From assembly GCA_000830275.1 (NCBI GenBank), contig CP010424.1:690001-722000 (forward strand): DNA of 32,000 nt, in the 5' to 3' direction. Source of the DNA: an archaeon GW2011_AR10 (lineage in GTDB: Archaea > Iainarchaeota > Iainarchaeia > Iainarchaeales > GW2011-AR10). Each line of letters begins with the position of its first letter. Position 1 is the first letter of the stretch. Under the pieces are notes generated by a model. It did not search any database. It worked only from the letters and a program-made list of their open reading frames with translations, and was not told the origin of the DNA. This document shows, one piece after another, positions 12,653-29,336 of this stretch. Both the position numbers and the translations under genes were made by a program.

Positions 12653-15076
12653 ATGGCTAAAGCGGTTAAGAAAGGCACTCTATTGGATGTAAGCTACTTT
12701 TTGGATGACGAAAAAGGCATTGCCTTAAATCTTTTCGTGAAAACCCAGAAAGGAATAGAGGAATTCTCGGAGAAAAAGTTCAAGCCATACTTTTACGTTG
12801 TTACAGATGACGCAAAAAAAAGGCTGCGTGAACTGGAAAAAAAGGAGTTTGGAGAAGAAAAAATAAAGCCCATGAAAGTGGAGGAAGTAAAAAAGTCAAA
12901 CGAGGAAAACGTGCTGAAGTTGAGCTTCAAAAACACGCACGAGCTTATAACTGCGAGGGAATCAATAGAAGAAATGCAGGGAGTTAAAGAGAAACGGGAG
13001 TACGATATCCCGTTTGCAAAGCGTTTCCTCATTGACCAAAGCATTGAGCCAATGAATGGCCTGGAGCTTGAAGTCAACGAAAAAAACGAAGTGCAAAAAC
13101 TCCGAGTATACAACACCAAGAAAGATTTATTGGATGAGCTCAGCGTTGCGTGCTTTGACATTGAAACCTATTCTCCTGGAAGGTTCAGTGACCCCTCCAG
13201 GGACCCAATAGTTTCAATCGCTTTAAGTTCTGGCGGAAAAGAAAAAGCGTTTGTGTGGAGGCAGAAACCAGAAAAAGAAAAAGCAGATTTTTTTGAAACG
13301 GAAAAAGAAATGCTTGAAGCATTTCTCAACGAAATGGCAAAATCAAAGCCAGACATTATTGTTACTTACAATGGAGACATGTTTGATTTTCCTTACATTA
13401 AGGAAAGAGCCAGAGTACTGAAGGTTGATTTGAAGAAAGGCTTTGGCTCCGAGCCAGACGTTAGAAGGAAAGGTCTTCAGAATGCAGTGAAGCTGAAAGG
13501 AATCCAGCACGTTGACGCATATCAGATAGTGAGACTGATGACAAGGTTTGGCACAGTCAGCCTTGTCAAGTTTGACTTGGAGTCTGTAAGCTTCGAATTG
13601 TTCGGCAAAGAAAAGGAAAAAATGACCCCTGAACAAATAAACAAGGCTTGGAGCACTGGAACAAACATTGATGCGCTGCTGCAGTACAACAAAGAGGACG
13701 CAAAAACTACACTCAGGATTGCTGAGACATTCCTTCCATTGTTTTTTGAGTTCTCAAAGCTCGTGCACCAGACACTGTTTGATTCAACGAGGAGCTCTGC
13801 TGGACAGCTCGTGGAAGATCTGCTGATAGAGAAATCGTTTGAAAACAACGCGCTGATTCCAAACAAGCCGCAAGAAGGAGTTGTAACGCAGAGGCTGCTG
13901 CAGAGCTTTAAGGGAGGGTATGTCAAGGAGCCTGTTGCAGGGCTGCATGAAAACATTGCAGTGCTTGACTTCCGGAGCCTTCACCCAAGCATAATGATTT
14001 CCCACAATGTTTCGCCTGAAACCCTCAAGTGCGAGCACGCCTCATGCAGGAACGGGAAAAACCTTTCGCCTGACAAGGACTGGTTCTGCGAAAAAAAGAG
14101 GGGTTTCATTCCAACAATTATAGAGGAAATCCTGAACAAGAGAATTGAAATTAAAAACGAAATGAAGAAATTTAAGGAGGGCACGCCTGAATTTGAAAGC
14201 CTTAAGGCAAGGCAGCATGCCCTGAAAATAGTTCTGAATTCGCATTACGGTTACCTTGGTTATGCTAGGAGCAGGTGGTATAGCAGGGAAAGCGCAAGGG
14301 CAGTTACTGCTTGGAGCAGGCACTACATAAGGGAGAGCATTCACAAGGCGGAAAAGGCAGGCTTTAACCCGATTTATAGTGACACTGACAGCCTATTCAT
14401 AATCGTTCCAAAAGGCAAAACCGAAAAAGACGTTAACGCGTTCGTGAAAAAAATAAACAGCGAACTGCCCGGAGCAATGGAACTAGAGTTTGAAGGCTAC
14501 TACAAGCGAGGTATTTTCGTAACCAAAAAAGAGGGCGGGGCAGCAAAAAAAAGGTACGCGCTGGTTGACTTCAAGGACAGCCTAAAAATTGTTGGCTTTG
14601 AGTATGTTAGGAGGGACTGGGCAAGGATTGCAAAGGAAACCCAAAAAGAAGTGATTGAAGCAGTGCTGAAGGAAGGCAAACCAGAAAAAGCAGTTGAAAT
14701 CGTGAAAAAAATAGTTGAGAGGCTGAAGAAGGGGGAAGTAACAAAAAAAGAGCTGATAATTATGACGCAGATAAGAAGGCCCCTGAACAAGTATGAAAAC
14801 ATTGGCCCGCACGTTGCTGCTGCACAAAAAGCAGTCAAGAGAGGAAAAGAGGTTGGCGTTGGGTCAACGATTTCCTTCATAATTACGAAGTCTGGGAAAA
14901 GCATAAGCGACAAAGCAGAACTAGAAGAATTCGTTAAAGAAGGAAACTATGATGCCGACTATTACATTAATCACCAGGTTTTGCCGGCAATAATCAAGAT
15001 ACTGGCCGAGCTAGGCTACAGCGAAGAGGACCTAATCCAGGGAGGAAAACAGCAGAGCTTAAGCTCATTCATGTAA
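12653..15076 (+). CDS. polB: Family B DNA polymerase (archaeal PolB)
   Basis: 807 aa, collinear by eye with Pyrococcus/Thermococcus PolB. Exo I FDIETYS; Exo II IIVTYNGDMFDFPY; Exo III YNKEDAKTT. Motif A LDFRSLHPSIMISHNVSPETL; motif B KIVLNSHYGYLGYARSRWY; motif C IYSDTDSLF. Also KKRYA, VRRDW and YYINHQVLPA. No intein. Confidence 0.97.
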   Translation: MAKAVKKGTLLDVSYFLDDEKGIALNLFVKTQKGIEEFSEKKFKPYFYVVTDDAKKRLRELEKKEFGEEKIKPMKVEEVKKSNEENVLKLSFKNTHELITARESIEEMQGVKEKREYDIPFAKRFLIDQSIEPMNGLELEVNEKNEVQKLRVYNTKKDLLDELSVACFDIETYSPGRFSDPSRDPIVSIALSSGGKEKAFVWRQKPEKEKADFFETEKEMLEAFLNEMAKSKPDIIVTYNGDMFDFPYIKERARVLKVDLKKGFGSEPDVRRKGLQNAVKLKGIQHVDAYQIVRLMTRFGTVSLVKFDLESVSFELFGKEKEKMTPEQINKAWSTGTNIDALLQYNKEDAKTTLRIAETFLPLFFEFSKLVHQTLFDSTRSSAGQLVEDLLIEKSFENNALIPNKPQEGVVTQRLLQSFKGGYVKEPVAGLHENIAVLDFRSLHPSIMISHNVSPETLKCEHASCRNGKNLSPDKDWFCEKKRGFIPTIIEEILNKRIEIKNEMKKFKEGTPEFESLKARQHALKIVLNSHYGYLGYARSRWYSRESARAVTAWSRHYIRESIHKAEKAGFNPIYSDTDSLFIIVPKGKTEKDVNAFVKKINSELPGAMELEFEGYYKRGIFVTKKEGGAAKKRYALVDFKDSLKIVGFEYVRRDWARIAKETQKEVIEAVLKEGKPEKAVEIVKKIVERLKKGEVTKKELIIMTQIRRPLNKYENIGPHVAAAQKAVKRGKEVGVGSTISFIITKSGKSISDKAELEEFVKEGNYDADYYINHQVLPAIIKILAELGYSEEDLIQGGKQQSLSSFM

Positions 15077-17312: not shown

Positions 17313-17384
17313 GCCTCCATAGTATAGTGGATAGCACGCGGGCTTGCGGAGCCTGAAACCTGGGTTCGACTCCCAGTGGAGGCA
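17313..17384 (+). tRNA. tRNA-Arg: tRNA-Arg (anticodon GCG), no intron, CCA not encoded
   Basis: Acceptor GCCTCCA/TGGAGGC. Anticodon stem CGGGC/GCCTG with loop TTGCGGA. T arm CTGGG-TTCGACT-CCCAG. Discriminator A. The D stem has one A-C mismatch. Confidence 0.9.
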
Positions 17385-17388
17385 TCAT

Positions 17389-17504
17389 GCAGGGGTAGGG
17401 AAGCGGCCAAACCTGCAGCGTTCAGACGGGCAAGCAGTAAATGCTTGTTCGGAATTAGGCGCTGTCGCTTAGTGCGTTCGGGGGTTCGAATCCTCCCCCC
17501 TGCA
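17389..17504 (+). tRNA. tRNA-Leu: tRNA-Leu (anticodon CAG) with a 32-nt intron in the anticodon loop and a long variable arm
   Basis: Acceptor GCAGGGG/CCCCTGC. Anticodon stem CAGCG/CGCTG with loop 5' part TTCAG. The intron, ~17426/7..17457/8, forms a 10-bp hairpin. Variable arm TCGCTTAGTGCGTT. T arm GGGGG-TTCGAAT-CCTCC. Discriminator A. The gene starts 4 nt after tRNA-Arg. Confidence 0.85.
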
Positions 17505-17641
17505 CTATCCATTAACAAGCATAAAAAATGGGGCGATTAAATGGAAACAAATAAAGAATGACATCTGAAAAACAAAATGCCTAAAAACCAAACACTGGTT
17601 TAAATATCATACACAGCACTTCAAAAAAAGAGGGAAATTCA

Positions 17642-17995
17642 ATGGAAAAGGAACTTAAAGAAATGACAGTAAGAGAATTGCTTGAATTAAAAGCAAGGCT
17701 GTTTCAGCAAGCCCACGGGAAAGGGTTGCTGGCATCAACCCCTTACGGCAAAAGAGCAAGAGGCGCAATGGACATTAACGTTGACAAAAGCATGCTTGAG
17801 CAAAATCCAGCAACTTGGGCTGAAAAAAATTCAAGAGCAACGCAGTACCATAGCCCCAGCAGAAGAACAAGGAATAACTTGGTTTCCTCTGTTATAAGGC
17901 TTCGGACAATGCTGTCAAAGGCAGAAATGCACAATGCCAGTCTGCCGGAAAAACCAATAAAGCAGAGGACGCCAAAAAGATTCCCAAGAAAGTAG
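17642..17995 (+). CDS. Basic hypothetical protein (117 aa)
   Basis: ORF with AGAGGGA 7 nt upstream of the ATG and TTTAAATA ~35-40 nt upstream. I recognise no family. Confidence 0.5.
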   Translation: MEKELKEMTVRELLELKARLFQQAHGKGLLASTPYGKRARGAMDINVDKSMLEQNPATWAEKNSRATQYHSPSRRTRNNLVSSVIRLRTMLSKAEMHNASLPEKPIKQRTPKRFPRK

Positions 17996-18004
17996 GTAGC
18001 GCAT

Positions 18005-18535
18005 TTACATTGGCCTTCTGCCGCGTTTAAACTTTCCAACCCTTCCGTATTTTAGCCTGGCATCCTTACTTCTTCTGTTTACGCTTGGCTGTTTTGGCCA
18101 TTTCTTAGGGTCCATTTGAAACAGTCTTGACAAAACAGGATATTCCTCTTGAATAGTTAAAGCAATTGCTTTACGCATTGCCTTAACTGAAATTCCTCTT
18201 TCCTCTGCGAAAGTTTTTGCTAATTCATCCAAAAATTTTAACATTAATTCATTGGAAAAAGTTTTCCTGCTAAATAAACCAAGCACTGCTTCTTTTTGTT
18301 TTGCGCTCAAGTCAAATTTCCTGTCCTTAGGCCCCACAGAAATTCTTTCAGCCAGAACAGGATTGGAAGTGCCAATTAACTTGGATATTGAATCCCGAAC
18401 TGAGCTGACTGGTTGGCCTTCCTGCGCAATTAAAGAAACCAGCCCATCCAGCTGCTCCAATTTTTTCCACAGAGAAGTTTTAGAAATAGATGCAATAGCT
18501 AAAACCGCTTTTCTTTGATCCGGCGTCAAAGGCAT
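18005..18535 (-). CDS. Hypothetical protein (176 aa) with an internal duplication
   Basis: ORF on the minus strand. Two related segments, LTPDQRKAVLAIAS and LSAKQKEAVLGLFS. Basic C-terminal tail. No recognised family. Confidence 0.6.
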   Translation of the reverse strand: MPLTPDQRKAVLAIASISKTSLWKKLEQLDGLVSLIAQEGQPVSSVRDSISKLIGTSNPVLAERISVGPKDRKFDLSAKQKEAVLGLFSRKTFSNELMLKFLDELAKTFAEERGISVKAMRKAIALTIQEEYPVLSRLFQMDPKKWPKQPSVNRRSKDARLKYGRVGKFKRGRRPM

Positions 18536-18566
18536 AAAAAAAGAAACAATTCAGAATTATAAAAAC

Positions 18567-19322
18567 TTATCTTTTTTTCCAGGACGGAACGAATTTTGCG
18601 CTTGTCTTATGGTTGAGCCTTTCTCTTTCAGCTTCTGCCCTGAATAGCTCTGCATTTAGTTTTCTTAAAGCTTTGTCATGCTCCATAGGAATTCCTCTTT
18701 CCCTCAAAAGCCGTTTCCTCCTAGAAATTTTTTTCCTTACAACTTGAAGCGCATAAGTTGCTTTGCCAAGAGGGCTGTCCCTGTACAACTTAATTGCTGC
18801 AGTGCCCCTTTCACTTGCCTGATAACGTTTTCTGACAGCTTTACCTTTCTGGCTGCGCTGATAGCGTTTATTCGAAGCACTTCTTTTTGGGGAACCCTTC
18901 TGCCTTTCATGCGCTGCTCTTTCAACCTGCATGCCTTTCTCAGTCAGGCGATAGTCTGCCTTAATTTTTCTGTATTCTGGGGTTGCATGCCACCACGACA
19001 ACTGCTGCTGCCTGCTTAACTCACTAATTTTCCTGGCAATGTCTTCCGGCACACTGTTTTCCTCCAGCAGTTTTCTCCTGTACTCCATTCCCTCTTTTCT
19101 GATAGCCAAAAGCCCGCTATTGGAAGAACCTCTTCTTTTTGCTTCCAAAAACCTGTTATGGAAAACAATTCTGCTCCTAGCCAGTTCAGGAACAAGCCAA
19201 GAAAACTCGTGAATCCTGCCCCTGCCAACAATCCTTGGCCTCGTGCTCCTGCTTAAAGGTTTAACCATAAAAATAAATCCGCTTTCTTGGTTAAAAAAGT
19301 TTTTGTTGAGCCCAGAAAACAT
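18567..19322 (-). CDS. Highly basic hypothetical protein (251 aa) with short tandem Y-x5-G repeats
   Basis: The ATG at 19322 lies ~24 nt downstream of a TATA-like box (19338-19350), so the transcript is probably leaderless. Three 13-aa tandem units: RYQRSQKGKAVRK / RYQASERGTAAIK / LYRDSPLGKATYA. Confidence 0.6.
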   Translation of the reverse strand: MFSGLNKNFFNQESGFIFMVKPLSRSTRPRIVGRGRIHEFSWLVPELARSRIVFHNRFLEAKRRGSSNSGLLAIRKEGMEYRRKLLEENSVPEDIARKISELSRQQQLSWWHATPEYRKIKADYRLTEKGMQVERAAHERQKGSPKRSASNKRYQRSQKGKAVRKRYQASERGTAAIKLYRDSPLGKATYALQVVRKKISRRKRLLRERGIPMEHDKALRKLNAELFRAEAERERLNHKTSAKFVPSWKKR

Positions 19323-19337
19323 ATAAATGAGAGAAAA

Positions 19338-19350
19338 CGTTTTTATAGAA
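19338..19350. promoter_or_regulatory. Shared TATA-like element in the 59-nt divergent intergenic region (18567..19322 minus / trkA plus)
   Basis: CGTTTTTATAGAA lies ~24 nt from ATG 19322 (minus strand) and ~36 nt from ATG 19382 (plus strand). Confidence 0.3.
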
Positions 19351-19381
19351 GGAAACTGTTTATTGTTAGAGTGGTTTTTTC

Positions 19382-20035
19382 ATGCACGTAATCATTGTTG
19401 GCGCCGGTGATTTGGGTTATTATTTGGCGCAGTTTTTGCTGGAGGAAAAGCATGATGTTGTTGTTGTTGACAGGGATGAAGCAGCGTGCAAGAAAATTAA
19501 TAGCGAGTTTGGAATTGTGGCAGTGCAAGGGGATGGCACTGAACCAAAAACACTGGAAAAGGCAGGCATCGCAGAAGCCGATACTGTTGTAGCATTGACT
19601 GGGCAGGATGAAGCAAACATGGTTATCTGCCTGCTTGCAAAAGAGCTTGGAGCAAAAAACATTGCTGCAAGGATTTCAAGAGTTGACTATGATGAGAGAG
19701 CCCTGAAAAGGCTTGGAATTGACATAGTAATTCACCCTGAGGCAGCGGCTGCCGGTTACATTGCCGAACTGCTGACAAAACCAGAGTTATTGGACCTTGC
19801 TTTCATCAGCAGGGGGGACGCAGAAATAATGGAGTTAGAGGTCAGGCCAAACTCAAAGATTGCAGGCAAAAAAGTTAGTGAAGTAGAGCATCCAGCGGGT
19901 TCAGCCATTATTGCATTGTACAAGGGAAAAAAAATTGTAGTCCCTGAACCCAACACAGTAATTGAGGTTGGAGCAAAAGCATTGATCCTAGTAAAAAAAG
20001 AAGCAGCAGAAAAGGTTAGGCAAACTTACGCCTGA
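19382..20035 (+). CDS. trkA: TrkA-type K+ transport regulatory protein (TrkA-N Rossmann domain + TrkA-C domain)
   Basis: MHVIIVGAGDLGYYLAQFLLEEKHDVVVVDRD (GxGxxG...D NAD-binding fingerprint). C-terminal AEIMELEVRPNSKIAGKKVSEV...IIALYKGKKIVVPEPNTVIEVGAKALILV is typical of TrkA-C. No TrkH/KtrB gene is adjacent. Confidence 0.88.
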   Translation: MHVIIVGAGDLGYYLAQFLLEEKHDVVVVDRDEAACKKINSEFGIVAVQGDGTEPKTLEKAGIAEADTVVALTGQDEANMVICLLAKELGAKNIAARISRVDYDERALKRLGIDIVIHPEAAAAGYIAELLTKPELLDLAFISRGDAEIMELEVRPNSKIAGKKVSEVEHPAGSAIIALYKGKKIVVPEPNTVIEVGAKALILVKKEAAEKVRQTYA

Positions 20036-20200
20036 CACCCCGAGTTTCGATTGCTTTTGGGTTGTTGAGCTACTGCATTGGGGGTCTTTGGCGTGGTTTT
20101 CTGGGAGCAAAACCCAAAATTCTCAGTAAATCCCTGACAGGATTCCAGGGCACTTTTTTCGGCATTCTTTGTCTTGGAAAAAAAGGCATTACATCAACTC

Positions 20201-20485
20201 CTATTGATTTTCAACTACTACAAGCCCTTCTCCTTGTTCCCTTGAAAGCATTCCCTTTGAGAGTTTCCCCAGCTTTTCCCTGAGAGAACCCTTTTTTCCC
20301 TTTTTAATGGAAGCACTAATTGAGTGCGCCCCTATTTTGGCGTGCCTGTGCGCTTGCATGCGTTTTCCGCCCCTCTCCAGTTTTGCTTCTTCAAGAGCTT
20401 TCATGTGCTTTTTTTTTGCTCTTTTTTCCGGCGAACCAAAAAGGGCATCATTTATTGTTCCAGTGAAATTGAACCCTGCAGGCAC
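20201..20485 (-). CDS. Possible small basic protein (94 aa), hypothetical
   Basis: This is the only plausible ORF in a ~680-nt gap. GTG start with TTTAAATA (minus sense, 20514-20524) ~34 nt upstream. Lys/Gly-rich and low-complexity, so coding status is weak. Confidence 0.3.
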   Translation of the reverse strand: MPAGFNFTGTINDALFGSPEKRAKKKHMKALEEAKLERGGKRMQAHRHAKIGAHSISASIKKGKKGSLREKLGKLSKGMLSREQGEGLVVVENQ

Positions 20486-20714
20486 TCAACCACAACAAAA
20501 ATAGTTAATTGAAGTATTTAAACCATTGTATTAGAAAAAAAGCACACCATAGAAAGGTATTTAAAGAAAAAGAACACTAATTGTGTTATGAGAAGGGATT
20601 TAGTTCACGGCTGCTGCGGTGGACCCCCGGCAAATTAATGCCACTGATTCTATTCTGATTAGTGATAAAAAGGTTTCCCGAAACACTAGTTATACGAATA
20701 ATTGCTTCTTTAAT

Positions 20715-20787
20715 GGCGGATGTGGTGTAGTGGTTTGCATTGGAGCCTGTGGAGCTCTAGGCCCGGGTTCGATTCCCGGCGTCGGCC
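20715..20787 (+). tRNA. tRNA-His: tRNA-His (anticodon GUG) with genomically encoded G-1 and C73
   Basis: G-1 (20715) pairs with C73 (20787). Acceptor GCGGATG/CGTCGGC with a G3-G70 mismatch and a U6-G67 wobble. Anticodon stem GGAGC/GCTCT with loop CTGTGGA. T arm CCGGG-TTCGATT-CCCGG. Confidence 0.85.
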
Positions 20788-20838
20788 TTTTGCTTAAGCA
20801 AAAGCCCGGGAAAAAATACTTGACAAAGAGGGAAAAAA

Positions 20839-22080
20839 ATGGAACTGAAAACAGTTAAGGGAATGCAGGATTTTTTGCCGGAACAAGCGGCAAAAAAGCA
20901 GCTAATCGAAGAAACTTTCAGGAAAGTGTTCGAAAGGTACGGCTTTAAACCCATGGAAACACCTGCATTGGAGGATTTCAGCCTGCTGTCCAAGAAGGGC
21001 GCTGCAGGTGAAGCAATAAAAGAAGAAATATATTACTTCAAGGACAAGGGAAACCGTGAGCTTGGAATGCGGTTTGATTTGACTGTTCCTCTTGCAAGGG
21101 TTGTTGCAAGCAACCCAAGCATGCCAAAACCGTTCAAGCGCTATCAAATCGAGAAAGTATGGCGATATGACCAGCCGCAGCAGAAGCGATGGCGCGAGTT
21201 TACTCAGGCAGATGCAGACATAATTGGCACTGGCTCAATTCTTGCAGAATTTGAAATAATTGCTATGACAATTGATGCACTAAAAGAATTGGGGCTGAAA
21301 GGAAAAGTGAAAGTTAATGACAGACGGCTTTTAGAAGAGGTTGCCCTGCAAAGCGGAGTGAAAAAAGAGCAGTTAGCTGAATGCTTCAGGTCAATCGACA
21401 AACTGGACAAAATTGGAAAACAAGGAGTGGAAAAAGAGCTGAAAGAAAAAGGAATAAACACGCAAATTTTAGGACAGTTGACTGCTGATTTGAATTCCCT
21501 GCAAAAAAAAGCAAAAACAGCCGCTCTGTTGAAAGAACTTTTTGAAATGCTGAAAGAAAACGGAGTGGAACAATTTGTTCAGTTTGATCTGAGCCTTGCA
21601 CGCGGTCTGGAGTATTACACAGGAATTGTTTTTGAAGTTGTTGTAGAGGGCCCCAGCATTGGCGGCGGCGGAAGGTACGATAACCTGATTGAAAGTTTTG
21701 GCGGTCAGCAAACTCCTGCGATAGGCATAAGCTTCGGCGTGGAAAGGATCCTTGATTTGCTTGAAAATAAAACCAAGCTGGAAAACAAAACCCTTGTTTT
21801 TGTTGCTCCACTGAAAGAAGAATTCAACGGAGCAGCGCTTAAGCTGGCGCAGCAAATACGCTCTCTGGGAATTGGAGTGGAAATTGATTTAATGCAAAGG
21901 AAAGTTGGAAAGAACATGGAGTATGTGAACAAGGAAGGAATTCCATTTGCAATTGTGCTGGGAGAAAAAGAGGTTAAGGAAAAAAAATTCAGGCTCAAAG
22001 AAATGAAGGCAGGTAAAGAAACTGAAATTAAAATGAGCGAACTGGAAAAACTAGCAAAAACAGTTAAATCTTCTACATAA
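20839..22080 (+). CDS. hisS: Histidyl-tRNA synthetase
   Basis: 413 aa. KGMQDFLPEQA, MRFDLTVPLARVVA, FKRYQIEKVWRYDQPQQKRWREFTQADADIIG and GGGGRYDNL are hallmark class IIa HisRS motifs. C-terminal anticodon-binding domain (VFVAPL...IPFAIVLGEKE). Confidence 0.95.
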   Translation: MELKTVKGMQDFLPEQAAKKQLIEETFRKVFERYGFKPMETPALEDFSLLSKKGAAGEAIKEEIYYFKDKGNRELGMRFDLTVPLARVVASNPSMPKPFKRYQIEKVWRYDQPQQKRWREFTQADADIIGTGSILAEFEIIAMTIDALKELGLKGKVKVNDRRLLEEVALQSGVKKEQLAECFRSIDKLDKIGKQGVEKELKEKGINTQILGQLTADLNSLQKKAKTAALLKELFEMLKENGVEQFVQFDLSLARGLEYYTGIVFEVVVEGPSIGGGGRYDNLIESFGGQQTPAIGISFGVERILDLLENKTKLENKTLVFVAPLKEEFNGAALKLAQQIRSLGIGVEIDLMQRKVGKNMEYVNKEGIPFAIVLGEKEVKEKKFRLKEMKAGKETEIKMSELEKLAKTVKSST

Positions 22081-22138
22081 TTAAGGGCAACAAGTTACTA
22101 AAAAGTTTCATTAATTGAATAAATAAGCAAAAACGGTT

Positions 22139-22231
22139 GCTCCCGTGGTTCAGTGGTAGAATTCGTCCTTGGTATCTCCAAGAGAAGAGGCAACTAGGAC
22201 GAGATCGCGAGTTCGATTCTCGCCGGGAGCT
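22139..22231 (+). tRNA. tRNA-Thr: tRNA-Thr (anticodon GGU) with a 21-nt intron at 37/38
   Basis: Acceptor GCTCCCG/CGGGAGC. D arm GTTC-AGTGGTA-GAAT. Anticodon stem CGTCC/GGACG with loop TTGGTA|intron 22175..22195|A. T arm GCGAG-TTCGATT-CTCGC. Discriminator T. Relaxed BHB: the central helix has 3 Watson-Crick pairs plus one G-G mismatch. Confidence 0.85.
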
Positions 22232-22242
22232 TTGGGCATTCA

Positions 22243-22289
22243 AACCCTTTTTAAGGCTTGAAAGCCTATTTCGAACCCTTTTTAAGGCT
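22243..22289 (+). repeat. Two perfect 16-nt direct repeats (AACCCTTTTTAAGGCT) 31 nt apart, between tRNA-Thr(GGU) and the protease gene
   Basis: Copies at 22243..22258 and 22274..22289. Each carries a TATA-like TTTTTAAGG. Confidence 0.6.
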
Positions 22290-22308
22290 AATCCTACCCA
22301 TTTTGAAT

Positions 22309-23196
22309 ATGAACAAGCAAATCCTAATCGGAATAATTGCGGTTGTACTGTCAGTTGGATTGGCTCTAGCGGCAAAGCCTGACTTTCAGCTTGCTTCAGT
22401 GAACCCTTCAAACGGCATTGCATCAGTGGTTATTCCTACTAATTCAGTTGAGGTTGCTCCAGGCGTGTTTTCATTGGGAACCGGCATAGACAAAGGCAGA
22501 ATAGTCGAAGGCTACGCTATTGTAGACTACAAGAAAGCGCCAGCAAAGCCTGGCACAGTCTGCGGAAACAATGTTTGCGAGCCAAGCGAGAACGCAAATA
22601 ATTGCCCTGCTGATTGTGGCGGAAACGGCGGACCAACAAGCACATGCTATGGTTTCCTTGCAAACGGTGCAAAGTGGAAAACCGTTGAACCATACATTGT
22701 CAACCCGGCAAACAACAGCGGTTTAGGCAGTTCCTTTATAGCAGACAACCTTGCATTAGACATAGGCAAGTGGGAAACTGCAACTGGTGTTGACGTTCTG
22801 GGCAATGGTTCAGTAACCAGTAGCACCCTTGAAGCTGACGTTGCAAGCACTGACGGAAACAATGAGGTCTACTTTGGAAGCATTGGTAACGAAGGGGCAA
22901 TTGCAGTAACCATTGTGTGGGGAATATTCAGGGGCCCACCCCAGTTCAGGGAACTCGTTGAATGGGACCAGGTCTATGACCAGGTTGACTTCAACTGGAG
23001 TGACAGTGGCGAAACAGGAAAAATGGACTTCGAGAACATTGCAACACACGAGTTAGGTCACAGCTTTGGCTTGGACGACTTGTACAACAGCGAGTGCTCA
23101 GAGCAAACAATGTTCGGCTTGGCTTCCGATGGCGAAACCAAGAAGAGAACACTGGAATCTGGAGACATTGCTGGAGTACAAGCACTCTACAGCTGA
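22309..23196 (+). CDS. Secreted metzincin-like zinc metalloprotease (HExxHxxGxxD)
   Basis: Start moved to ATG 22309 (MNKQILIGIIAVVLSVGLALA signal-like peptide). The track start 22258 lies in repeat-containing intergenic sequence just after a tRNA. HELGHSFGLDD zinc motif followed by a Met-turn candidate (QTMFG). Cys-rich insert VCGNNVCEPSENANNCPADCGG. Confidence 0.8.
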   Translation: MNKQILIGIIAVVLSVGLALAAKPDFQLASVNPSNGIASVVIPTNSVEVAPGVFSLGTGIDKGRIVEGYAIVDYKKAPAKPGTVCGNNVCEPSENANNCPADCGGNGGPTSTCYGFLANGAKWKTVEPYIVNPANNSGLGSSFIADNLALDIGKWETATGVDVLGNGSVTSSTLEADVASTDGNNEVYFGSIGNEGAIAVTIVWGIFRGPPQFRELVEWDQVYDQVDFNWSDSGETGKMDFENIATHELGHSFGLDDLYNSECSEQTMFGLASDGETKKRTLESGDIAGVQALYS

Positions 23197-23283
23197 ATTA
23201 AATTAGGCTGAAAAACAGCCATCTTTTTCTTTTTTTATTTTATTGCAAATGATTAAATATCTGAGTGCAGTAGTTTTAATGGA

Positions 23284-23964
23284 ATGCTGCACGAGCAACA
23301 CATTGAGGACATGATTGCAAAATTTGTAAAAGACAATGACGTTGTAAGCATTGGCACAAGCAAGCAGGGGGAAACATTCCTGAAAAAGCTTGCGCTTGCA
23401 TTGGAGCACGAGCACATCCCGATTAACCACATCGAATTCATTCCCACCTCAAACCATTTGGCCATAATTGCCGGGCAGTTGAAAATTCCGGTTACCTCGC
23501 TGAACGAAAAAGAAATTGATGTTGCAATCGAATTTGTTGACGCAATAGATGAGCACTTCAACTTCATTAAGCGGAATTCCTATTCGCTTGTCAGGGACAA
23601 AATGATTGCTCAGAGCGCTGCAGTGCTTGTAACTGTTGCAGAGGAAAAAAATTTTGTCAGCAGGCTAAAGGGAAGGATTCCGTTCGAGATAACCCCTTTT
23701 GGCTGGAAGCGCACTCTCAGCCAGCTAGAAATGTTTGGCAAGGCAAAGCTGAGAGAGGAAAACGGAAAGCCGTTAAAAACCGAAACAGGAAACTATTTAA
23801 TTGACGTTGACTGTGATGAAATTTACTCCATTGATGACCTTGACTACCAGGCAAAGAACATTCCGGGAGTGCTGGAAACCGGCATCTTCATCGGTTACGC
23901 TGACAAAATTGTGCTGCACAACAATAAAATAGTGGTTAAGAGCAGAACAGAGTTCAAACAGTGA
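23284..23964 (+). CDS. rpiA: Ribose-5-phosphate isomerase A-like protein (divergent)
   Basis: Collinear by eye with E. coli RpiA. VVSIGTSKQGETF aligns with IVGVGTGSTAAHF. FVDAIDE aligns with YVDGADE. FIKRNSYSLVRDKMI aligns with MIKGGGAALTREKII. TETGNYLIDV aligns with TDNGNVILDV. IPGVLETGIF aligns with IPGVVTVGLF. Confidence 0.7.
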   Translation: MLHEQHIEDMIAKFVKDNDVVSIGTSKQGETFLKKLALALEHEHIPINHIEFIPTSNHLAIIAGQLKIPVTSLNEKEIDVAIEFVDAIDEHFNFIKRNSYSLVRDKMIAQSAAVLVTVAEEKNFVSRLKGRIPFEITPFGWKRTLSQLEMFGKAKLREENGKPLKTETGNYLIDVDCDEIYSIDDLDYQAKNIPGVLETGIFIGYADKIVLHNNKIVVKSRTEFKQ

Positions 23965-23970
23965 TATCCT

Positions 23971-23990
23971 CCCACACCCAAAGGTGTGGG
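23971..23990 (+). terminator. GC-rich hairpin 7 nt after the rpiA-like stop
   Basis: CCCACACC-CAAA-GGTGTGGG, an 8-bp perfect stem. No clear oligo-T follows, so terminator function is uncertain. Confidence 0.3.
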
Positions 23991-24150
23991 CTTCCTACCA
24001 CACGGAAAAGTCAAAGGTAATTAACGAGACTTCATCCAACAACTGAAGATTTGGTTTTCGCCAGCCTTTTTTTAAAAGGCTGATAAGTTGCCTGCAGCAG
24101 CCAATACGCGGTTTTTTTAAAGCTTTAATGCCATGAAATCAATAGCATCT

Positions 24151-24277
24151 GCCGGTGTAGCTCAGCGGTTAGAGCGCTTGATTCCTGCACTAATTGATGC
24201 GGGAAAGCGAAACTCATAAGGCGCTGCTTAATGCTTGGGAAATCAAGTGGCCGAGAGTTCAAATCTCTCCACCGGCA
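24151..24277 (+). tRNA. tRNA-Met/Ile2: tRNA with anticodon CAU (elongator Met or Ile2) containing two introns: 24181..24211 (position 30/31) and 24219..24241 (position 37/38)
   Basis: Acceptor GCCGGTG/CACCGGC. D arm GCTC-AGCGGTTA-GAGC. T arm GAGAG-TTCAAAT-CTCTC. Discriminator A. Removing the two segments, each bounded by a drawable bulge-helix-bulge motif, gives a 73-nt tRNA with anticodon stem CTTGA/TCAAG and loop CTCATAA. It is not an initiator: G1-C72 is present and the anticodon stem has no GGG/CCC. Confidence 0.8.
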
Positions 24278-24315
24278 CTCCAAACATTTTTATTTTTCGC
24301 AGAGGTAAGTATTGC

Positions 24316-25191
24316 ATGGATAAATTAAATATTGCAACCAAGGGCGCATTATCACTTGTTTTTATTATTGCTTTTGCTGCAGTGGTTCTTTATATTCTTA
24401 ATAACAATTTATCTTCCAAAGAACTTGGATTGGATGGCAGGGTTCTGATTTATGCATTCGTTTTCCTGATTGGGGGAATTGCACTTTTTTATTTTGGCTT
24501 CAAGTGGCTGCGCGAAAAACTGTTAATTGAAAGCATTCCAACATCAAAAATCCGAAGCCTTGCAATGGGCATTGTGGAAGTTTTTGGTGAAGTGATTCCA
24601 GCAGAGGACAAGCTTTTGAGGAGCCCTTTCACTAACAAAGACTGTGTATACTATGAATACTCAATTCAGGAGCGCCGGGGCAGCGGGAAAAACTCGCGTT
24701 GGGTTACAATCAGGCATGACAAAAATTTTTACCATTTTTTTGTGGAAGATGAAACAGGAGAAGTTTTGGTTGACCCTGATGGGGCAAACATTGATATTCC
24801 ATTCACTTTCACTTACAATTCCGGCTTATTCAAGGACCCGCCAAAAGAAGTGCAGAATTTTTTGAAATCAGAGGGATTAAGCTTTGAAGGCTTTTTTGGA
24901 ATCAATAAAACAATGAAGTTCGAGGAAAAAGCATTGGTGCCTAACAAAAAAGTTTACATAATGGGAGAAGCCGGTGACAACCCCTTTGTGGAGGAAGCAA
25001 CCTCACAGAAAGGCGTGAAGGATGTTATGATCCAGAAAGGAAAAAACGAGAAGTTCTTTTACATTTCAACCAAGCCGGAAAAAGAGGTTTTGAAAGGAAT
25101 GGGCCTGAAAGCATACGTTGGAATTGCACTTGGAATCCTCTTCATTGTGGGTTCCTTGATTGTGATTTTTGCTTTCTTTAATTTCCTGTAA
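24316..25191 (+). CDS. GIDE-domain membrane protein (the usual LemA partner)
   Basis: Start moved to ATG 24316 (AGAGGT 9 nt upstream), because the track start 24235 lies inside the tRNA gene. Two N-terminal TM helices and a C-terminal TM flank the core domain. The core (IRSLAMGIVEVFGEVIPAEDKLLRSPFTNKDCVYYEYSIQERRG...WVTIRHDKNFYHFFVEDETGEVLVDPDGANI) matches my recollection of the GIDE (PF12483) pattern. Confidence 0.75.
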   Translation: MDKLNIATKGALSLVFIIAFAAVVLYILNNNLSSKELGLDGRVLIYAFVFLIGGIALFYFGFKWLREKLLIESIPTSKIRSLAMGIVEVFGEVIPAEDKLLRSPFTNKDCVYYEYSIQERRGSGKNSRWVTIRHDKNFYHFFVEDETGEVLVDPDGANIDIPFTFTYNSGLFKDPPKEVQNFLKSEGLSFEGFFGINKTMKFEEKALVPNKKVYIMGEAGDNPFVEEATSQKGVKDVMIQKGKNEKFFYISTKPEKEVLKGMGLKAYVGIALGILFIVGSLIVIFAFFNFL

Positions 25192-25240
25192 ACCAAACAA
25201 TTAAAAACAAATAAACTGCATTATATCTAAAGGTGCTGCA

Positions 25241-25813
25241 ATGGTCTGGGAATTTCTGTTGATTGGCGCGGTTGTTTTGGGGCTAATCGGCTTGGCGGTA
25301 ATCGCTTACATTATTCTTATTTACAACAGCTTGGTTCAATTGAGGAACAACATTGACAAATCGTGGGCAAACATTGACGTGCTGCTCACGCAAAGGGCCA
25401 GTGAATTGCCAAAGCTGCTGGACACCGTTAAAGGCTACATGAAATACGAGAAGAACGTTTTAACGGAAGTTACACGCGCAAGAACTGCTTTCATGGATGC
25501 CAAAAGTATTCAGGAGAAAGCCGACGCAGACAACTTTTTGACCGGTGCACTGAAAACATTGTTTGCTGTTGCGGAAAATTACCCTAACCTAAAAGCAAAT
25601 GAGAACTTCATGCAGTTGCAGGGAAGGATTTCTGGTTTGGAAAACGAAATCGCTGACAGGAGAGAATTCTACAACGACAGCGTGAACACTTTCAACATTC
25701 GCATCCAGCAAATCCCCCAGAACTTCATCGCAGGAATGCTGGGCTACCAGCGGAAAGAACTTTTCCAGGCAACCGCTGAAGAAACGAAGGACGTCAAAAT
25801 CAATTTTGAATAG
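25241..25813 (+). CDS. lemA: LemA family protein
   Basis: N-terminal TM helix followed by YNSLVQLRNNIDKSWANIDVLLTQRASELPKLLDTVKGYMKYEKNVLTEVTRAR...ENYPNLKANENFMQLQGRISGLENEIADRREFYNDSVNTFNIRIQQIPQNFIAGMLGY, the canonical LemA signature. AAAGGTG lies upstream of the ATG. Confidence 0.92.
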   Translation: MVWEFLLIGAVVLGLIGLAVIAYIILIYNSLVQLRNNIDKSWANIDVLLTQRASELPKLLDTVKGYMKYEKNVLTEVTRARTAFMDAKSIQEKADADNFLTGALKTLFAVAENYPNLKANENFMQLQGRISGLENEIADRREFYNDSVNTFNIRIQQIPQNFIAGMLGYQRKELFQATAEETKDVKINFE

Positions 25814-25952
25814 TTGCTTTAGGCAAGTGCCTGCAATAGTTTGCCATCATTGTGTCATCTAAATTCGTTATAAAAAAAACTGTTTTTTGGCTCAAATTTT
25901 TTTGAACCATTAAACTGCAGGGTTTTAAGGTTTTCTATTCTATTATAATGCA

Positions 25953-27167
25953 ATGAAACTAAACAGTTTTGCGGTTTTGTTTTTGTTGGCGGTAGTTGTA
26001 ATAGCCGGCTGCACTGCCCCTCCAAGTGGAAATGGTGGTGGAAACGGAGCAGGCGAAACTGCAACTGGAACACTTGTTTTGAGCATAACCGACCAGCCGA
26101 GCTATGCGGAAAATTACACTGCAATTAATGTAACAATTTCAGGCATTGAAGTGCATAAGGATGGCAACTGGCTTTCGTTCTTTGAAGGAGAGAAAACAGT
26201 TAACCTCCTTGAATTAAGCGGCGTGAAAGAGGTTATAGGGCAGGACGAACTTGAAGCAGGAAAGTACACCCAAATCAGGCTGGCTGTTTCAGAAGCGGAA
26301 CTGGTTAAAGCTGACGGCAGCAGTGAAGACGTGAAGGTGCCAAGCGAGGAAATAAAGCTCGTGAAAAGCTTTGACATTGCTGATGGAGAGCTTTTAGAGT
26401 TAGTGCTGGATTTTTCCCCTTACTCTGTTGTGGTTGCGGGAAACCAGTACATTTTGAAGCCAGTAATAAAAGTTCTTAGCACTGAGGAGTTCCAGGAAAA
26501 AGTTGAAAGGGAAGCAAACGAAAGAGGGGAAAGAGAGCGAAGAGAAAAGGAAGTCAAGATAGAGCAGCTTGTTTTCCCGGACACTGTTGAAGCAGGAGAA
26601 GAGTTTGAATTAAGGTGGATGGTTAAAGGCGGGAAAGAGGGGGTTGTTTCCCACACAGCAGCCCATTGGGATTTGGTTGGAGGCCATGACGCTGACATAA
26701 CTAAGTACGCTAACGTAACCGAAATACTGCAGGGAGAAACTCCAATGAATGCAGCGGTAACTGTAACTGCACCAGAAGAGGAAGGAACGCTTTACTTCAG
26801 GGCTCACGCAATAGTTGACGGTTCACATTATTACTTGGAAGAGCAGTCAATTGGGGTTACAGCAAATGAAGAGCCGCCTTCACCTGAATTAACGGAGTTC
26901 TCTGTTGAAGCTGATGACGACAAATTTGAGCCAAACAATGTAACTGTGCCAAAAGGCTCAACAGTCAAAATTACTTTTAATGTCTCAACTGACAACGTTT
27001 CCTGGGGTGGCCTGGACTTCAAGAGCACGCTGTTTGAAACAGAAACAGTCAATCCAGGAGAATCGACAACTGTTGAGTTCACTGCGCCGCAGAGCAACCT
27101 AATAATCAGCTCTTACTGGCCAAGCTCGAATGTTCTCAAGGCACAAATGACCGTGAAGGTTGAGTAA
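25953..27167 (+). CDS. Lipoprotein with a DUF4382-like N-domain and a cupredoxin-like C-domain lacking obvious Cu ligands
   Basis: Signal/lipobox MKLNSFAVLFLLAVVVIAGC. GTLVLSITDQP...INVTISGIEVHKDGNWLSF...VNLLELSG...LEAGKYTQIRLAVSEAELV...LVLDF...ILKPVIKV resembles DUF4382. C-terminal FEPNNVTVPKGSTVKITFNVS...VNPGESTTVEFTAP resembles a cupredoxin strand pattern but has no His/Cys/Met ligand set. Confidence 0.8.
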   Translation: MKLNSFAVLFLLAVVVIAGCTAPPSGNGGGNGAGETATGTLVLSITDQPSYAENYTAINVTISGIEVHKDGNWLSFFEGEKTVNLLELSGVKEVIGQDELEAGKYTQIRLAVSEAELVKADGSSEDVKVPSEEIKLVKSFDIADGELLELVLDFSPYSVVVAGNQYILKPVIKVLSTEEFQEKVEREANERGERERREKEVKIEQLVFPDTVEAGEEFELRWMVKGGKEGVVSHTAAHWDLVGGHDADITKYANVTEILQGETPMNAAVTVTAPEEEGTLYFRAHAIVDGSHYYLEEQSIGVTANEEPPSPELTEFSVEADDDKFEPNNVTVPKGSTVKITFNVSTDNVSWGGLDFKSTLFETETVNPGESTTVEFTAPQSNLIISSYWPSSNVLKAQMTVKVE

Positions 27168-27208
27168 AAAGCAATTCAAATTTAAATTTTTCTTTCTTTT
27201 TCTATTGA

Positions 27209-27649
27209 ATGAAATTCTACAAATTTCTTGTTCTGCTGGTTTTGGCTTTTATTCTGGTTTCAGGGTGCACGCAGATTAAGCCAACAGATGGAAGACAGGA
27301 GCCAGTTTACACTGAGGGAACATTGCCTCAAACAGCAGATGTCAAAACTATAACGGTTAAGGTTGTTGACGGAGCAAACGTTCTTGTTGAACAGCCGATA
27401 GAGCTTCCGAATGATTCAAGTGTTAGCGCATTGGATGTTACTGTTTTGGTTGCAGGAGCTGAAGTGCAACAATATGAGTTTGGAGTATTTGTTACCTCAG
27501 TTGCAGGAAAAGCAGCTGACACCGAGCATTACTGGGCGCTTTACATCAACGGGGAGTACGCTTCAAAGGGCGCTGACCAATATCCAATAACTGAAGTGAA
27601 CTCAATTGAATGGCGTTACGAGGCAGTGGAAGAATTTCCCCTAGAATAA
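27209..27649 (+). CDS. Lipoprotein with a DUF4430-like (transcobalamin-like) domain
   Basis: Lipobox LVLAFILVSGC. ITVKVVDG...SALDVTVLV...VQQYEFGVFVTSVAGKAADTEHYWALYINGEYASKGADQYPITEVNSIEWRY fits the DUF4430 pattern (fG.fv.si.G...yW.y.vNG..a..ga..y.l..gd.i.w.y). Confidence 0.75.
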   Translation: MKFYKFLVLLVLAFILVSGCTQIKPTDGRQEPVYTEGTLPQTADVKTITVKVVDGANVLVEQPIELPNDSSVSALDVTVLVAGAEVQQYEFGVFVTSVAGKAADTEHYWALYINGEYASKGADQYPITEVNSIEWRYEAVEEFPLE

Positions 27650-27865
27650 TTAAGTGGTTCTTGAAATTTTTTTCTTTGGCTCATCAACAGTGCCAAGATT
27701 GAATATTCCATCCAGTGTAACCGCGACAACCATTATCAGGATTCCAATGCCACTGAACGCAGTTGAAGCAACCGTGCCGGGAAACAGCATTTCTCCAATT
27801 ATGACTAGCACTAGGAAAAGCATGCCCAGGAAAAAACTTTTTGTCAGAAGACTGATTAAACCCAT
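27650..27865 (-). CDS. Small 2-TM membrane protein (71 aa), cassette copy 2, gene B
   Basis: Begins MGL like the 28238..28459 product. Starts 4 nt after the stop of the upstream 119-aa gene. Its stop abuts the stop of the convergent 27209..27649 gene (TAATTA). Confidence 0.55.
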   Translation of the reverse strand: MGLISLLTKSFFLGMLFLVLVIIGEMLFPGTVASTAFSGIGILIMVVAVTLDGIFNLGTVDEPKKKISRTT

Positions 27866-27869
27866 TTTT

Positions 27870-28229
27870 TTACCTCAATAAAAAGTTGAATATTAAGAAC
27901 AGTATGTAAAACTCCAGAGTGGCAATTATTACAAGATACTTGTTTAGCTTGGGAGTTGACTCTATAAAAGCAACTACTGCCAGCTTTGTTACATAGTACA
28001 ATAACAGGAACGCTGCTGAAGTCCAGAACAGCCCAGCAAGCACCTCCAAATCAGAAAAAGCCCACATAATCAACGCGAATAAAATTGTAAAGTAAAGGGT
28101 TCTTTTTCCGCCCATGAAATAAAACATTATTGCGTAAAAGGCGAAAAGCCAGAACAGGTTTCCGATAACTAAATTAATGAACCAGCCCAGGTCAAGGGCA
28201 CCCAAGTGAACTAAAGCCTCGTAAAACAT
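27870..28229 (-). CDS. 4-TM membrane protein (119 aa), cassette copy 2, gene A
   Basis: Clear paralog of the 28464..28829 product: EALVHLGALDLGWFINLVIGNLFWLFAF vs EAVLNLATLNIGWFIDLIFGNLFWVFAF. Confidence 0.7.
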   Translation of the reverse strand: MFYEALVHLGALDLGWFINLVIGNLFWLFAFYAIMFYFMGGKRTLYFTILFALIMWAFSDLEVLAGLFWTSAAFLLLYYVTKLAVVAFIESTPKLNKYLVIIATLEFYILFLIFNFLLR

Positions 28230-28237
28230 TTTCTCAC

Positions 28238-28459
28238 TTAACCCTTTTTGCCTCCGCTTACTGAATTGTTGTTGGACTTGGTCTCCATCCTAACAATATT
28301 CACTGCGAAGATGCAGAAAAACAGAAGCATGAACAGACCGCCAGTACTGATTGCACCTGCCTTAATTATGCCGGTTCCAGAACTGATGAGTATGAAAAAC
28401 AAGATAGATGCAGCAACTGCAATTACAATTCCGTCCAAAATGTTTTTAGCCAATCCCAT
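28238..28459 (-). CDS. Small 2-TM membrane protein (73 aa), cassette copy 1, gene B
   Basis: MGLAKNILDGIVIAVAASILFFILI...GGLFMLLFFCIFAVNIV. Starts 4 nt after the stop of the upstream 121-aa gene, the same spacing as in copy 2. Confidence 0.55.
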   Translation of the reverse strand: MGLAKNILDGIVIAVAASILFFILISSGTGIIKAGAISTGGLFMLLFFCIFAVNIVRMETKSNNNSVSGGKKG

Positions 28460-28463
28460 TTTA

Positions 28464-28829
28464 TCACGTCAAAATTATGTGGTAAATTGCAAGCGTTACA
28501 ATGAACAAAGTTAGGTTAACCAGCACTAACCTGCCCTTTAGCGCAGGAATTGTTGAGGCAAAGGTCAGCACCGCAACCCTGCTGACATAGTTGAATGCAA
28601 GGAAACCCGCAACTAATACAGTCAAGCCCCATATTGCAGGAGTGTCAACTGAAAGCCAAATCCAAAGAACAAGCATTATTGATGCAAGGAGCCAGTTCTT
28701 GCCACTGTAAAAGAATGCTGCGAGCGCAGCGAAAGCAAAAACCCAGAAAAGGTTTCCGAAAATTAGATCAATAAACCAGCCAATGTTAAGGGTAGCAAGA
28801 TTCAGCACTGCCTCAATGAAAATAGTCAA
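28464..28829 (-). CDS. 4-TM membrane protein (121 aa), cassette copy 1, gene A
   Basis: TTG start preceded by GGGGGGAGAG (strong SD-like sequence). Paralog of the 27870..28229 product. Confidence 0.7.
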   Translation of the reverse strand: MTIFIEAVLNLATLNIGWFIDLIFGNLFWVFAFAALAAFFYSGKNWLLASIMLVLWIWLSVDTPAIWGLTVLVAGFLAFNYVSRVAVLTFASTIPALKGRLVLVNLTLFIVTLAIYHIILT

Positions 28830-29100
28830 GCTCTCCCCCCTTCAGCCATAGAAGTGCCGGGGGCTAAGCCAGTTGAAATAATTCTGAGAAAGCCTCCGGC
28901 ACCTTCCGATAGCTTCCTTGAACTAAGGAGAACTAGGGAAATTCTATGACTAGTCATATATTTAGGCCTGTATATATTCTACATAATATACTATATAAAT
29001 GTAATTAATTAACCGAATTTGGTGATTTACTGGCTTCTGGCGGGCTTTTTAGAGGTTATAAAGTAATTTAAAGCAAATCTTGTATGATTACTTAATTGCT

Positions 29101-29175
29101 GCCCCGATAGTCTAGCCCGGCCAAGGACAATGCCCTCTCACGGCATAAACACGGGTTCAAATCCCGTTCGGGGCA
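29101..29175 (+). tRNA. tRNA-Glu: tRNA-Glu (anticodon CUC)
   Basis: Acceptor GCCCCGA/TCGGGGC. D arm GTCT-AGCCCGGCCAA-GGAC. Anticodon stem ATGCC/GGCAT with loop CTCTCAC. T arm ACGGG-TTCAAAT-CCCGT. Discriminator A. Confidence 0.92.
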
Positions 29176-29223
29176 CTCAAAACCATTTTAACTTGTTTAG
29201 GTTCTTTTCTTTTTTAGTGCAGG

Positions 29224-29254
29224 TTTTTTCTTTTCTTCCCAAGAAAAGAAAAAA
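29224..29254. repeat. 14-bp perfect pyrimidine/purine hairpin between tRNA-Glu and tRNA-Thr (T-tract, possible terminator)
   Basis: TTTTTTCTTTTCTT-CCC-AAGAAAAGAAAAAA. The T-rich arm resembles archaeal oligo-T termination signals downstream of tRNA-Glu. Confidence 0.35.
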
Positions 29255-29263
29255 AAGTGCGTT

Positions 29264-29336
29264 GCCTCTGTGGCTCAGTGGCTAGAGCAGCGGTTTTGTA
29301 AACCGCCGGTCGAGGGTTCGAATCCCTCCGGAGGCT
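29264..29336 (+). tRNA. tRNA-Thr: tRNA-Thr (anticodon UGU)
   Basis: Acceptor GCCTCTG/CGGAGGC. D arm GCTC-AGTGGCTA-GAGC. Anticodon stem GCGGT/ACCGC with loop TTTGTAA. T arm GAGGG-TTCGAAT-CCCTC. Discriminator T. Confidence 0.92.

Follow-up and report, generated by a model that had tools for sequence, protein, structure and literature searches.

A predicted two-intron CAU tRNA gene with a non-canonical 30/31 intron in a groundwater DPANN archaeon

The stretch of DNA analysed here, positions 690,001-722,000 of contig CP010424.1 (32,000 nt, called the window, to whose positions all feature coordinates refer), contains at 24151-24277 a locus with the arms of a tRNA and a long interruption between the two strands of its anticodon stem. 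The question raised by this locus is which tRNA, if any, it specifies, as both a single intron with the anticodon CCU and two introns with the anticodon CAU can be read into it. The best explanation, with a probability of about 0.75, is a CAU tRNA spliced at two bulge-helix-bulge (BHB) motifs, most likely elongator tRNA-Met, in a groundwater DPANN host.

Structure and predicted splicing of the interrupted gene

Window 24151-24277 (+) holds a genuine tRNA gene of an archaeon, with the anticodon CAU and two introns of the protein-spliced kind (Table 1). Its length of 127 nt is that of a 73-nt tRNA plus 54 nt, and the Rfam tRNA family (RF00005) matches the whole of it with 61.8 bits (gathering score 29), in an alignment that has a 58-nt insertion in the anticodon loop; ARAGORN, which called six other tRNAs in the window, missed it. 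The 5' half reads, in gene order, GCCGGUG UA GCUC AGCGGUUA GAGC G CUUGA, and after 61 nt the 3' half follows as UCAAG UGGCC GAGAG UUCAAAU CUCUC CACCGGC A. The 5' exon comprises the 5' strand of the acceptor stem, the D arm, G26 and anticodon-stem bases 27-30 (CUUG); the middle exon (A31 C32 U33 C34 A35 U36 A37) holds the anticodon CAU; and the 3' exon supplies A38, UCAAG, the variable loop UGGCC, the T arm, the 3' strand of the acceptor stem and the discriminator A73, CCA not being encoded. The predicted spliced product has 73 nt, a 5-bp anticodon stem (CUUGA/UCAAG) and a 7-nt loop (CUCAUAA) with U33 and A37. A sequence-only reading of the window had already proposed the two-intron CAU structure, and every one of its coordinates and pairings is present in the sequence, base for base; the structure is supported by the BHB geometry, by a shuffle test and by homologues of other archaea.

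Table 1. Window positions of the arms, exons, introns and splicing motifs of the CAU tRNA gene, its putative expression signals and two neighbouring tRNA genes
Feature	Position	Strand	Description	Basis
Acceptor stem	24151-24157/24270-24276	+	7 Watson-Crick pairs	
D stem	24160-24163/24172-24175	+	fully Watson-Crick	
T stem	24253-24257/24265-24269	+	fully Watson-Crick	
5' exon	24151-24180	+	tRNA positions 1-30	Rfam match and sequence
Middle exon	24212-24218	+	tRNA positions 31-37	spliced-product sequence, route search, 31:39 covariation
3' exon	24242-24277	+	tRNA positions 38-73	sequence and Rfam match
Intron 1	24181-24211	+	non-canonical 30/31, 31 nt	BHB scanner, pair probabilities, homologues
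Intron 2	24219-24241	+	canonical 37/38, 23 nt	BHB scanner on intron-1-free intermediate
BHB1, whole	24172-24215	+		BHB scanner, homologues, pair probabilities
BHB1 outer helix	24172-24174/24213-24215	+	GAG/CUC, 3 bp	
BHB1 central helix	24175-24178/24206-24209	+	CGCU/AGCG, 4 bp, all Watson-Crick	
BHB1 bulges	24179-24181, 24210-24212	+	UGA, AAA	
BHB1 inner helix	24182-24189/24198-24205	+	8 bp, one G-U	
BHB2 central helix	24213-24216/24236-24239	+	CUCA/UGGG, 4 bp, one G-U	
BHB2 bulges	24217-24219, 24240-24242	+	UAA, AAA	
BHB2 inner helix	24220-24223/24232-24235	+	4 bp, two G-U	
A/T-rich stretch	24112-24129	+	TTTTTTTAAAGCTTTAAT, 22-39 nt upstream; putative TATA/BRE region	sequence only
Oligo-T run	24287-24297	+	TTTTTATTTTT, 10 nt after gene; putative termination signal	sequence alone
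tRNA-Leu(CAG)	17389-17504	+	long variable arm; 32-nt intron (17426-17457)	strict BHB
tRNA-Thr(GGU)	22139-22231	+	21-nt canonical intron	loop UUGGUA, U73, orthologue in L007 after HisRS

Splice sites were sought with a scanner for BHB motifs (outer helix, 3-nt bulge, 4-bp helix, 3-nt bulge on the opposite strand, inner helix) that places each cut between the second and third bulge bases. The motif at intron 1 (BHB1) is a strict 3-4-3 motif (hBHBh') and by far the best match of the scanner in the primary transcript. It is built in part from borrowed exon bases, namely the 3' strand of the D stem, G26, C27, U28 and C32-C34. Base 31 is supplied after the intron and pairs with base 39, as expected of an insert at 30/31, a site listed in PMC4090602. 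Because 24181 and 24212 are both A, cutting at 30/31 or at 31/32 yields the identical product here; the site is fixed as 30/31 by the BHB geometry and by the existence of homologues in which the first intron base differs from base 31.

The motif at intron 2 (BHB2) has as its outer helix the rebuilt anticodon stem, of 7 bp once intron 1 is out, and is the weaker motif of the two, with G-U pairs in both its central and its inner helix. In the unspliced transcript the outer helix of BHB2 is a single base pair (A24212-U24243). In the intermediate lacking intron 1, the cloverleaf with BHB2 is predicted at -32.6 kcal/mol, compared to a predicted minimum of -38.5 kcal/mol in which exon AGCGCU pairs with GGCGCU of intron 2 instead of BHB2 being formed, and this is counted as a weakness of BHB2 rather than a refutation of it.

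Two segments of intron 2 have potential partners in the exons: 24220-24226 (GGCGCUG) is complementary to exon AGCGCU (24173-24178), and 24234-24239 (CUUGGG) can base-pair to the anticodon stem's 3' strand. Together they give rise to a decoy BHB (intron 24181-24225) and to folds that beat BHB2 in predicted energy. The decoy, which has the same 5' site as intron 1 and the central helix 24175-24178/24220-24223, was rejected because its product is unable to form a tRNA; excision between the two outermost sites only was rejected because the anticodon would be lost.

An exhaustive search of one-step and two-step routes through strict BHB motifs, with a 73-nt cloverleaf having U33 and a purine at position 37 as the endpoint, found exactly one route on the real sequence, identical to the one originally read and ending in the loop CUCAUAA. 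When the 61-nt insert was dinucleotide-shuffled with the exons fixed, a valid route appeared in 1 of 3000 shuffles.

BHB1 belongs to the minimum-free-energy fold of the full precursor; the ensemble predicted for the primary transcript assigns probabilities of 0.95-1.0 to the BHB1 pairs (0.5 to one inner-helix pair) and of close to 0 to those of BHB2. The strict forms of the two motifs cannot coexist because 24213-24215 (C32-U33-C34) are used by both, as the 3' strand of the outer helix of BHB1 and as part of the central helix of BHB2. Since BHB1 is the motif predicted to form in the precursor, where BHB2 has an outer helix of 1 bp, removal of intron 1 followed by intron 2 would be the natural order, and is the likely one according to these models. 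An earlier statement that splicing must be sequential stands as to the mutual exclusion of the strict motifs and the near-zero pairing of BHB2 in the precursor, but its "must" is lowered to "likely"; a relaxed form of BHB2 might be cut first by a broad-specificity endonuclease.

The pathway proposed would begin with a primary transcript in which the 3' strand of the D stem (G22-C25), G26, C27 and U28 leave the cloverleaf, the freed G22-U28 segment forming the strict 3-4-3 BHB by pairing with C32-U33-C34 and the 3'-terminal part of intron 1. EndA would cut after the second base of each BHB1 bulge, and an RtcB-type ligase would join G30 to A31. This ligation would complete the anticodon stem CUUGA/UCAAG, which would become the outer helix of the canonical intron-2 BHB (37/38), and a second round of cutting and joining would release the 73-nt tRNA with the loop CUCAUAA.

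CAU tRNA genes of other archaea with inserts at 30/31

Among the matches listed from two scans of a sequence collection are at least nine further CAU tRNA genes of archaea that are likewise interrupted between bases 30 and 31. One of the scan patterns, consisting of the 5' half and CTCATAA, gave at least 119 matches, of which 116 of the 119 listed are intron-less and mostly bacterial tRNAs and three are useful archaeal genes with inserts. The nine homologues belong to a Thermoproteota genome, B15_G15 (L020, with three introns, 30/31 and 37/38 included), a Woesearchaeota genome, CG10 (L032, with 30/31 and 37/38), a MAG labelled Methanosarcinales (L094, with a 12-nt intron at 30/31 and a long one at 37/38) and six metagenome contigs, four of which (L132, L133, L135 and L137) are interrupted at 30/31 only, one (L134) has three introns, 30/31 and 37/38 included, and one (L136) is interrupted at 30/31 only and has the Ile-type acceptor GGGCCCG.

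The inserts at 30/31 in these genes are 12-33 nt long and their inner sequences are mutually unrelated; some are mini-introns without an inner helix, and in some of the genes the T loop is interrupted by a third intron. The exon partners are identical in all nine: GAG (22-24) faces CUC (32-34), and opposite C25 G26 C27 N28 stands NGCG, located at the insert's 3' end. The search pattern itself fixed three of the four central-helix pairs, and the free pair is U-A in 5, C-G in 3, U-G in 1 and a mismatch in 1, and thus covaries.

In a 29-column core alignment, every cell of the anticodon stem that is reassembled across the insert is paired (100%), and changes on both sides have occurred in four of its five pairs. 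The base following the 3' splice site pairs with base 39 (31:39) in 9 of 9 distinct sequences (G-C in seven, A-U in two). None of 500 shuffles reached the observed percentage paired or the observed covariation score, and controls slid along the alignment were 16-39% paired. In L132, L133, L135 and L137, the insert at 30/31 is followed directly by CUCAUAA and then by the 3' strand of the stem, and because these four genes have no other interruption, CUCAUAA is the anticodon loop of the family. Copies of the tRNA region in six assemblies of the same population are 100% identical and therefore contribute no covariation information. No close relative with both introns was found among the collection matches listed, and an orthologous CAU tRNA is absent from the 10-kb flanks on the contigs of family-B DNA polymerase homologues P0008 and P0009, on which the gene order breaks after HisRS.

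At L135 262-355, L136 438-531 and L137 5293-5389, ARAGORN reports CAU tRNAs that carry a 30/31 intron as Ile(AAU), a tRNA of undetermined type or Leu(UAA); this miscalling is a systematic annotation error for the 30/31 class.

Identity of the spliced product

Features of the tRNA body suggest that the product is probably elongator tRNA-Met. It combines the anticodon CAU with A73 and G1-C72 and has no GGG/CCC run in the anticodon stem, which is the full set of sequence features sought for elongator tRNA-Met. Initiator tRNA, which in archaea has A1-U72 (PMC8450103), is excluded by G1-C72 and by the stem CUUGA/UCAAG. The sequence-only reading had bracketed the product as elongator tRNA-Met or tRNA-Ile2, and this bracket was right; G1-C72, G4-C69 and U29-A41 now narrow it toward Met.

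It is unlikely, though worth weighing before any other rival, that the same gene with the same introns produces tRNA-Ile2, in which case TiaS would convert C34 to agmatidine and the tRNA would read AUA and be charged by IleRS. The loop CUCAUAA and the discriminator A73 are common to Met and Ile2, and the 30/31 intron is present also in L136, an Ile2-like member of the family; however, the pairs C4-G69 and C29-G41, determinants of tRNA-Ile in E. coli that were retained in the reconstructed archaeal tRNA-Ile ancestor (PMC9976931, PMC13433404), both occur in L136 alongside its GGGCCCG acceptor, whereas the window tRNA has G4-C69 and U29-A41. These are minor determinants, defined in E. coli and in reconstructed ancestral tRNAs and taken from reviews. 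The acceptor GCCGGUG and the D arm of the window tRNA group it not with L136 but with L027, L056, L068 and L086 (acceptor GCCGG[U/C]G, A31-U39), genes that have the canonical intron only. No other CAU or Ile tRNA was found in the window, at a permissive threshold, or within approximately 10 kb beyond either end.

The 37/38 introns of L068, L086 and L027 (53-60 nt) contain UUAUGAG, complementary to the anticodon loop, with CUGA two bases later, as well as UGAU-type motifs, an arrangement that resembles a cis-acting box C/D guide aimed at C34. Cm34 in haloarchaeal tRNA-Met is guided by sR-tMet (PMC4033218).

That the locus is a decaying or unexpressed pseudogene, with inserts that merely look like introns, is highly improbable. 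The thermodynamic weakness of BHB2 and the folds that compete with it would be compatible with decay, but none of the four stems has a defect, and U33, A37 and both the T-loop and the D-loop are preserved; the gene is preceded by an A/T-rich box and followed by an oligo-T run, a putative archaeal TATA/BRE region and termination signal, respectively (Table 1); the identical sequence is present in six independent assemblies; a valid splicing route arises by chance about once in 3000 shuffles; and the same architecture recurs in other archaea. Comparable A/T boxes precede two other tRNA genes in the window, those for Glu and Arg.

There is hardly any likelihood that the gene encodes a tRNA-Arg(CCU) with a single 54-nt intron at 37/38 and the loop UUCCUGA, an interpretation previously judged to be a misreading for which no BHB can be drawn: the anticodon stem's 5' strand does run straight into UUCCUGA, and the product of such splicing folds into a cloverleaf, but the central helix UUCC/UGGG is not fully paired, the scanner finds no motif there even at one mismatch, UUCCUGCA makes up one of the two strands in the 8-bp inner helix of intron 1, and the equivalent region is unrelated in all nine homologues, in which CUCAUAA is invariant.

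Host, neighbouring genes and known disrupted tRNA genes

The archaeon harbouring the gene is a mesophilic DPANN organism of groundwater (Diapherotrites/Iainarchaeota). Archaeal genes adjoin the tRNA, encoding a family-B DNA polymerase (PolB), HisRS, RpiA and an M24 peptidase; the closest named relatives of PolB are in 'Candidatus Diapherotrites archaeon' MAGs (52-62% identity), and an identical RpiA protein is encoded on groundwater contigs (ANAN16 scaffolds, the 250-kb Ga0209211_10000053, and GCA_018304495.1). No gene for EndA or RtcB was found within the window or its flanks.

Seven tRNA genes, all on the forward strand, are located within 12 kb (window 17313-29336) in the order Arg-GCG, Leu-CAG, His-GUG, Thr-GGU, CAU, Glu-CUC, Thr-UGU; three of the seven have introns, and two of these three have a non-canonical site. 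The strict BHB of tRNA-Leu(CAG) puts the cut at 36/37, not 37/38, which would give the loop UUCAGGG, and intron-less orthologues in the two nearest relatives (L007 17663-17746, loop UUCAGGA; L009 16688-16772, loop UUCAGGG) support G37. In tRNA-Thr(GGU), the central helix UUGG/GCAA contains a G.G mismatch, making the BHB slightly relaxed. ARAGORN miscalls tRNA-Leu(CAG) as Asn(GUU) and tRNA-Thr(GGU) as Asp(AUC).

Free-standing LAGLIDADG_3 genes of approximately 362 aa adjoin tRNA genes in the two nearest relatives, beside tRNA-Thr in L007 (19387-20478, minus strand, with a 52-nt overlap) and beside tRNA-Leu in L009 (16758-17846, minus strand); none was found at the corresponding place in the window. 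The PolB gene of the window (12653-15076, +; 807 aa) is without an intein, and several close relatives (among the homologues P0002, P0012, P0017 and P0026) are approximately 1220-1250 aa long with an intein or LAGLIDADG domains. Three giant tandem genes, one in the window (1019-7768, +; 2249 aa) and two upstream (2444 and at least 2669 aa; L140 1-9973), encode CarboxypepD_reg and Ig-like repeats in an arrangement that is kept in L007 and L009; their products are probably surface proteins.

Non-canonical BHB introns, those at 30/31 included, are known from Crenarchaeota and Nanoarchaeota, as are genes interrupted by as many as three introns (PMC4090602, PMC4033280), and the multi-intron tRNAs of Thermoproteales and Crenarchaeota were described by Marck and Grosjean (2003) and Sugahara (2007/2008), as far as summarised in two reviews (PMC4090602, PMC4033280). 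The window gene resembles these in having a strict hBHBh' 3-4-3 motif, in combining a canonical with a non-canonical intron, in forming a BHB through an alternative fold that borrows exon bases, and in using a site that is on the published list. It differs from them in that its host is a mesophilic groundwater DPANN archaeon and not a thermophilic crenarchaeote, and its introns have no sequence relationship to those found in other lineages. With L020, L032, L094 and L132-L137 it shares the splice junction and the exon partners, whereas the inner helix differs every time. Position 30/31 is also the BHB junction of the split tRNA-Lys(CUU) of Nanoarchaeum equitans and Staphylothermus (PMC4090602), which is made from separate genes joined in trans, whereas the CAU tRNA of the window is one continuous gene.

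Within the DPANN, ARMAN-2 has 56% of its tRNA genes disrupted and possesses an epsilon2 EndA, which cleaves relaxed as well as strict motifs (PMC3239211), and several lineages with an alpha4 EndA bearing an L3 loop show increased disruption of tRNA genes (PMC5829648) and, according to the same authors, still hold unidentified disrupted tRNA genes. The window host is of the same superphylum as these organisms (PMC3239211, PMC3488258, PMC5829648) and is like them in its high share of intron-bearing tRNA genes (3 of 7 in the window), its non-canonical sites and its two-intron tRNA; the examples in ARMAN-2 are at 53/54 and 59/60 and some are of the relaxed hBH form, whereas the non-canonical motif of the window is strict and lies in the anticodon stem. 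The original assertion that non-canonical introns require broad-specificity enzymes survives as a correlation in the literature (PMC3239211, PMC5829648), but BHB1 itself is of the strict 3-4-3 form. Non-canonical and multiple tRNA introns, 30/31 included, are already known, also in DPANN, and no new mechanism is implied; only the host phylum and the recurrence of the 30/31 junction in CAU tRNAs are mildly new.

A more speculative reading, which has little probability, is that the 30/31 intron, instead of being a random insertion, represents an old or repeatedly re-acquired class specific to CAU tRNAs, by which modification of C34 (to Cm, ac4C or agmatidine) or charging would be delayed until the tRNA is spliced. 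Such a delay could occur because a BHB1-type fold locks C32-C34 in a helix and unzips the D stem. The BHB of this class would be formable only where a GAGC strand of the D stem meets an anticodon loop beginning with CUC. If this were true, the intron would provide a checkpoint for tRNAs in which the wrong wobble base swaps Met and Ile.

The practical consequence of genes of this kind is that DPANN tRNA inventories built with ARAGORN will appear to have gaps or errors, and the apparent absence of a tRNA-Met could be mistaken for genome reduction; tRNAscan-SE 2.0 has models for non-canonical introns (PMC8450103). As a two-intron CAU tRNA gene, most likely for elongator tRNA-Met, the locus brings a Diapherotrites case, backed by comparison, to the view that tRNA genes in DPANN archaea are heavily disrupted and that their splicing endonucleases are correspondingly versatile, and the occurrence of the same 30/31 junction with the same exon partners in CAU tRNAs of distant archaea offers a small, testable lead on the gain of introns at preferred sites.
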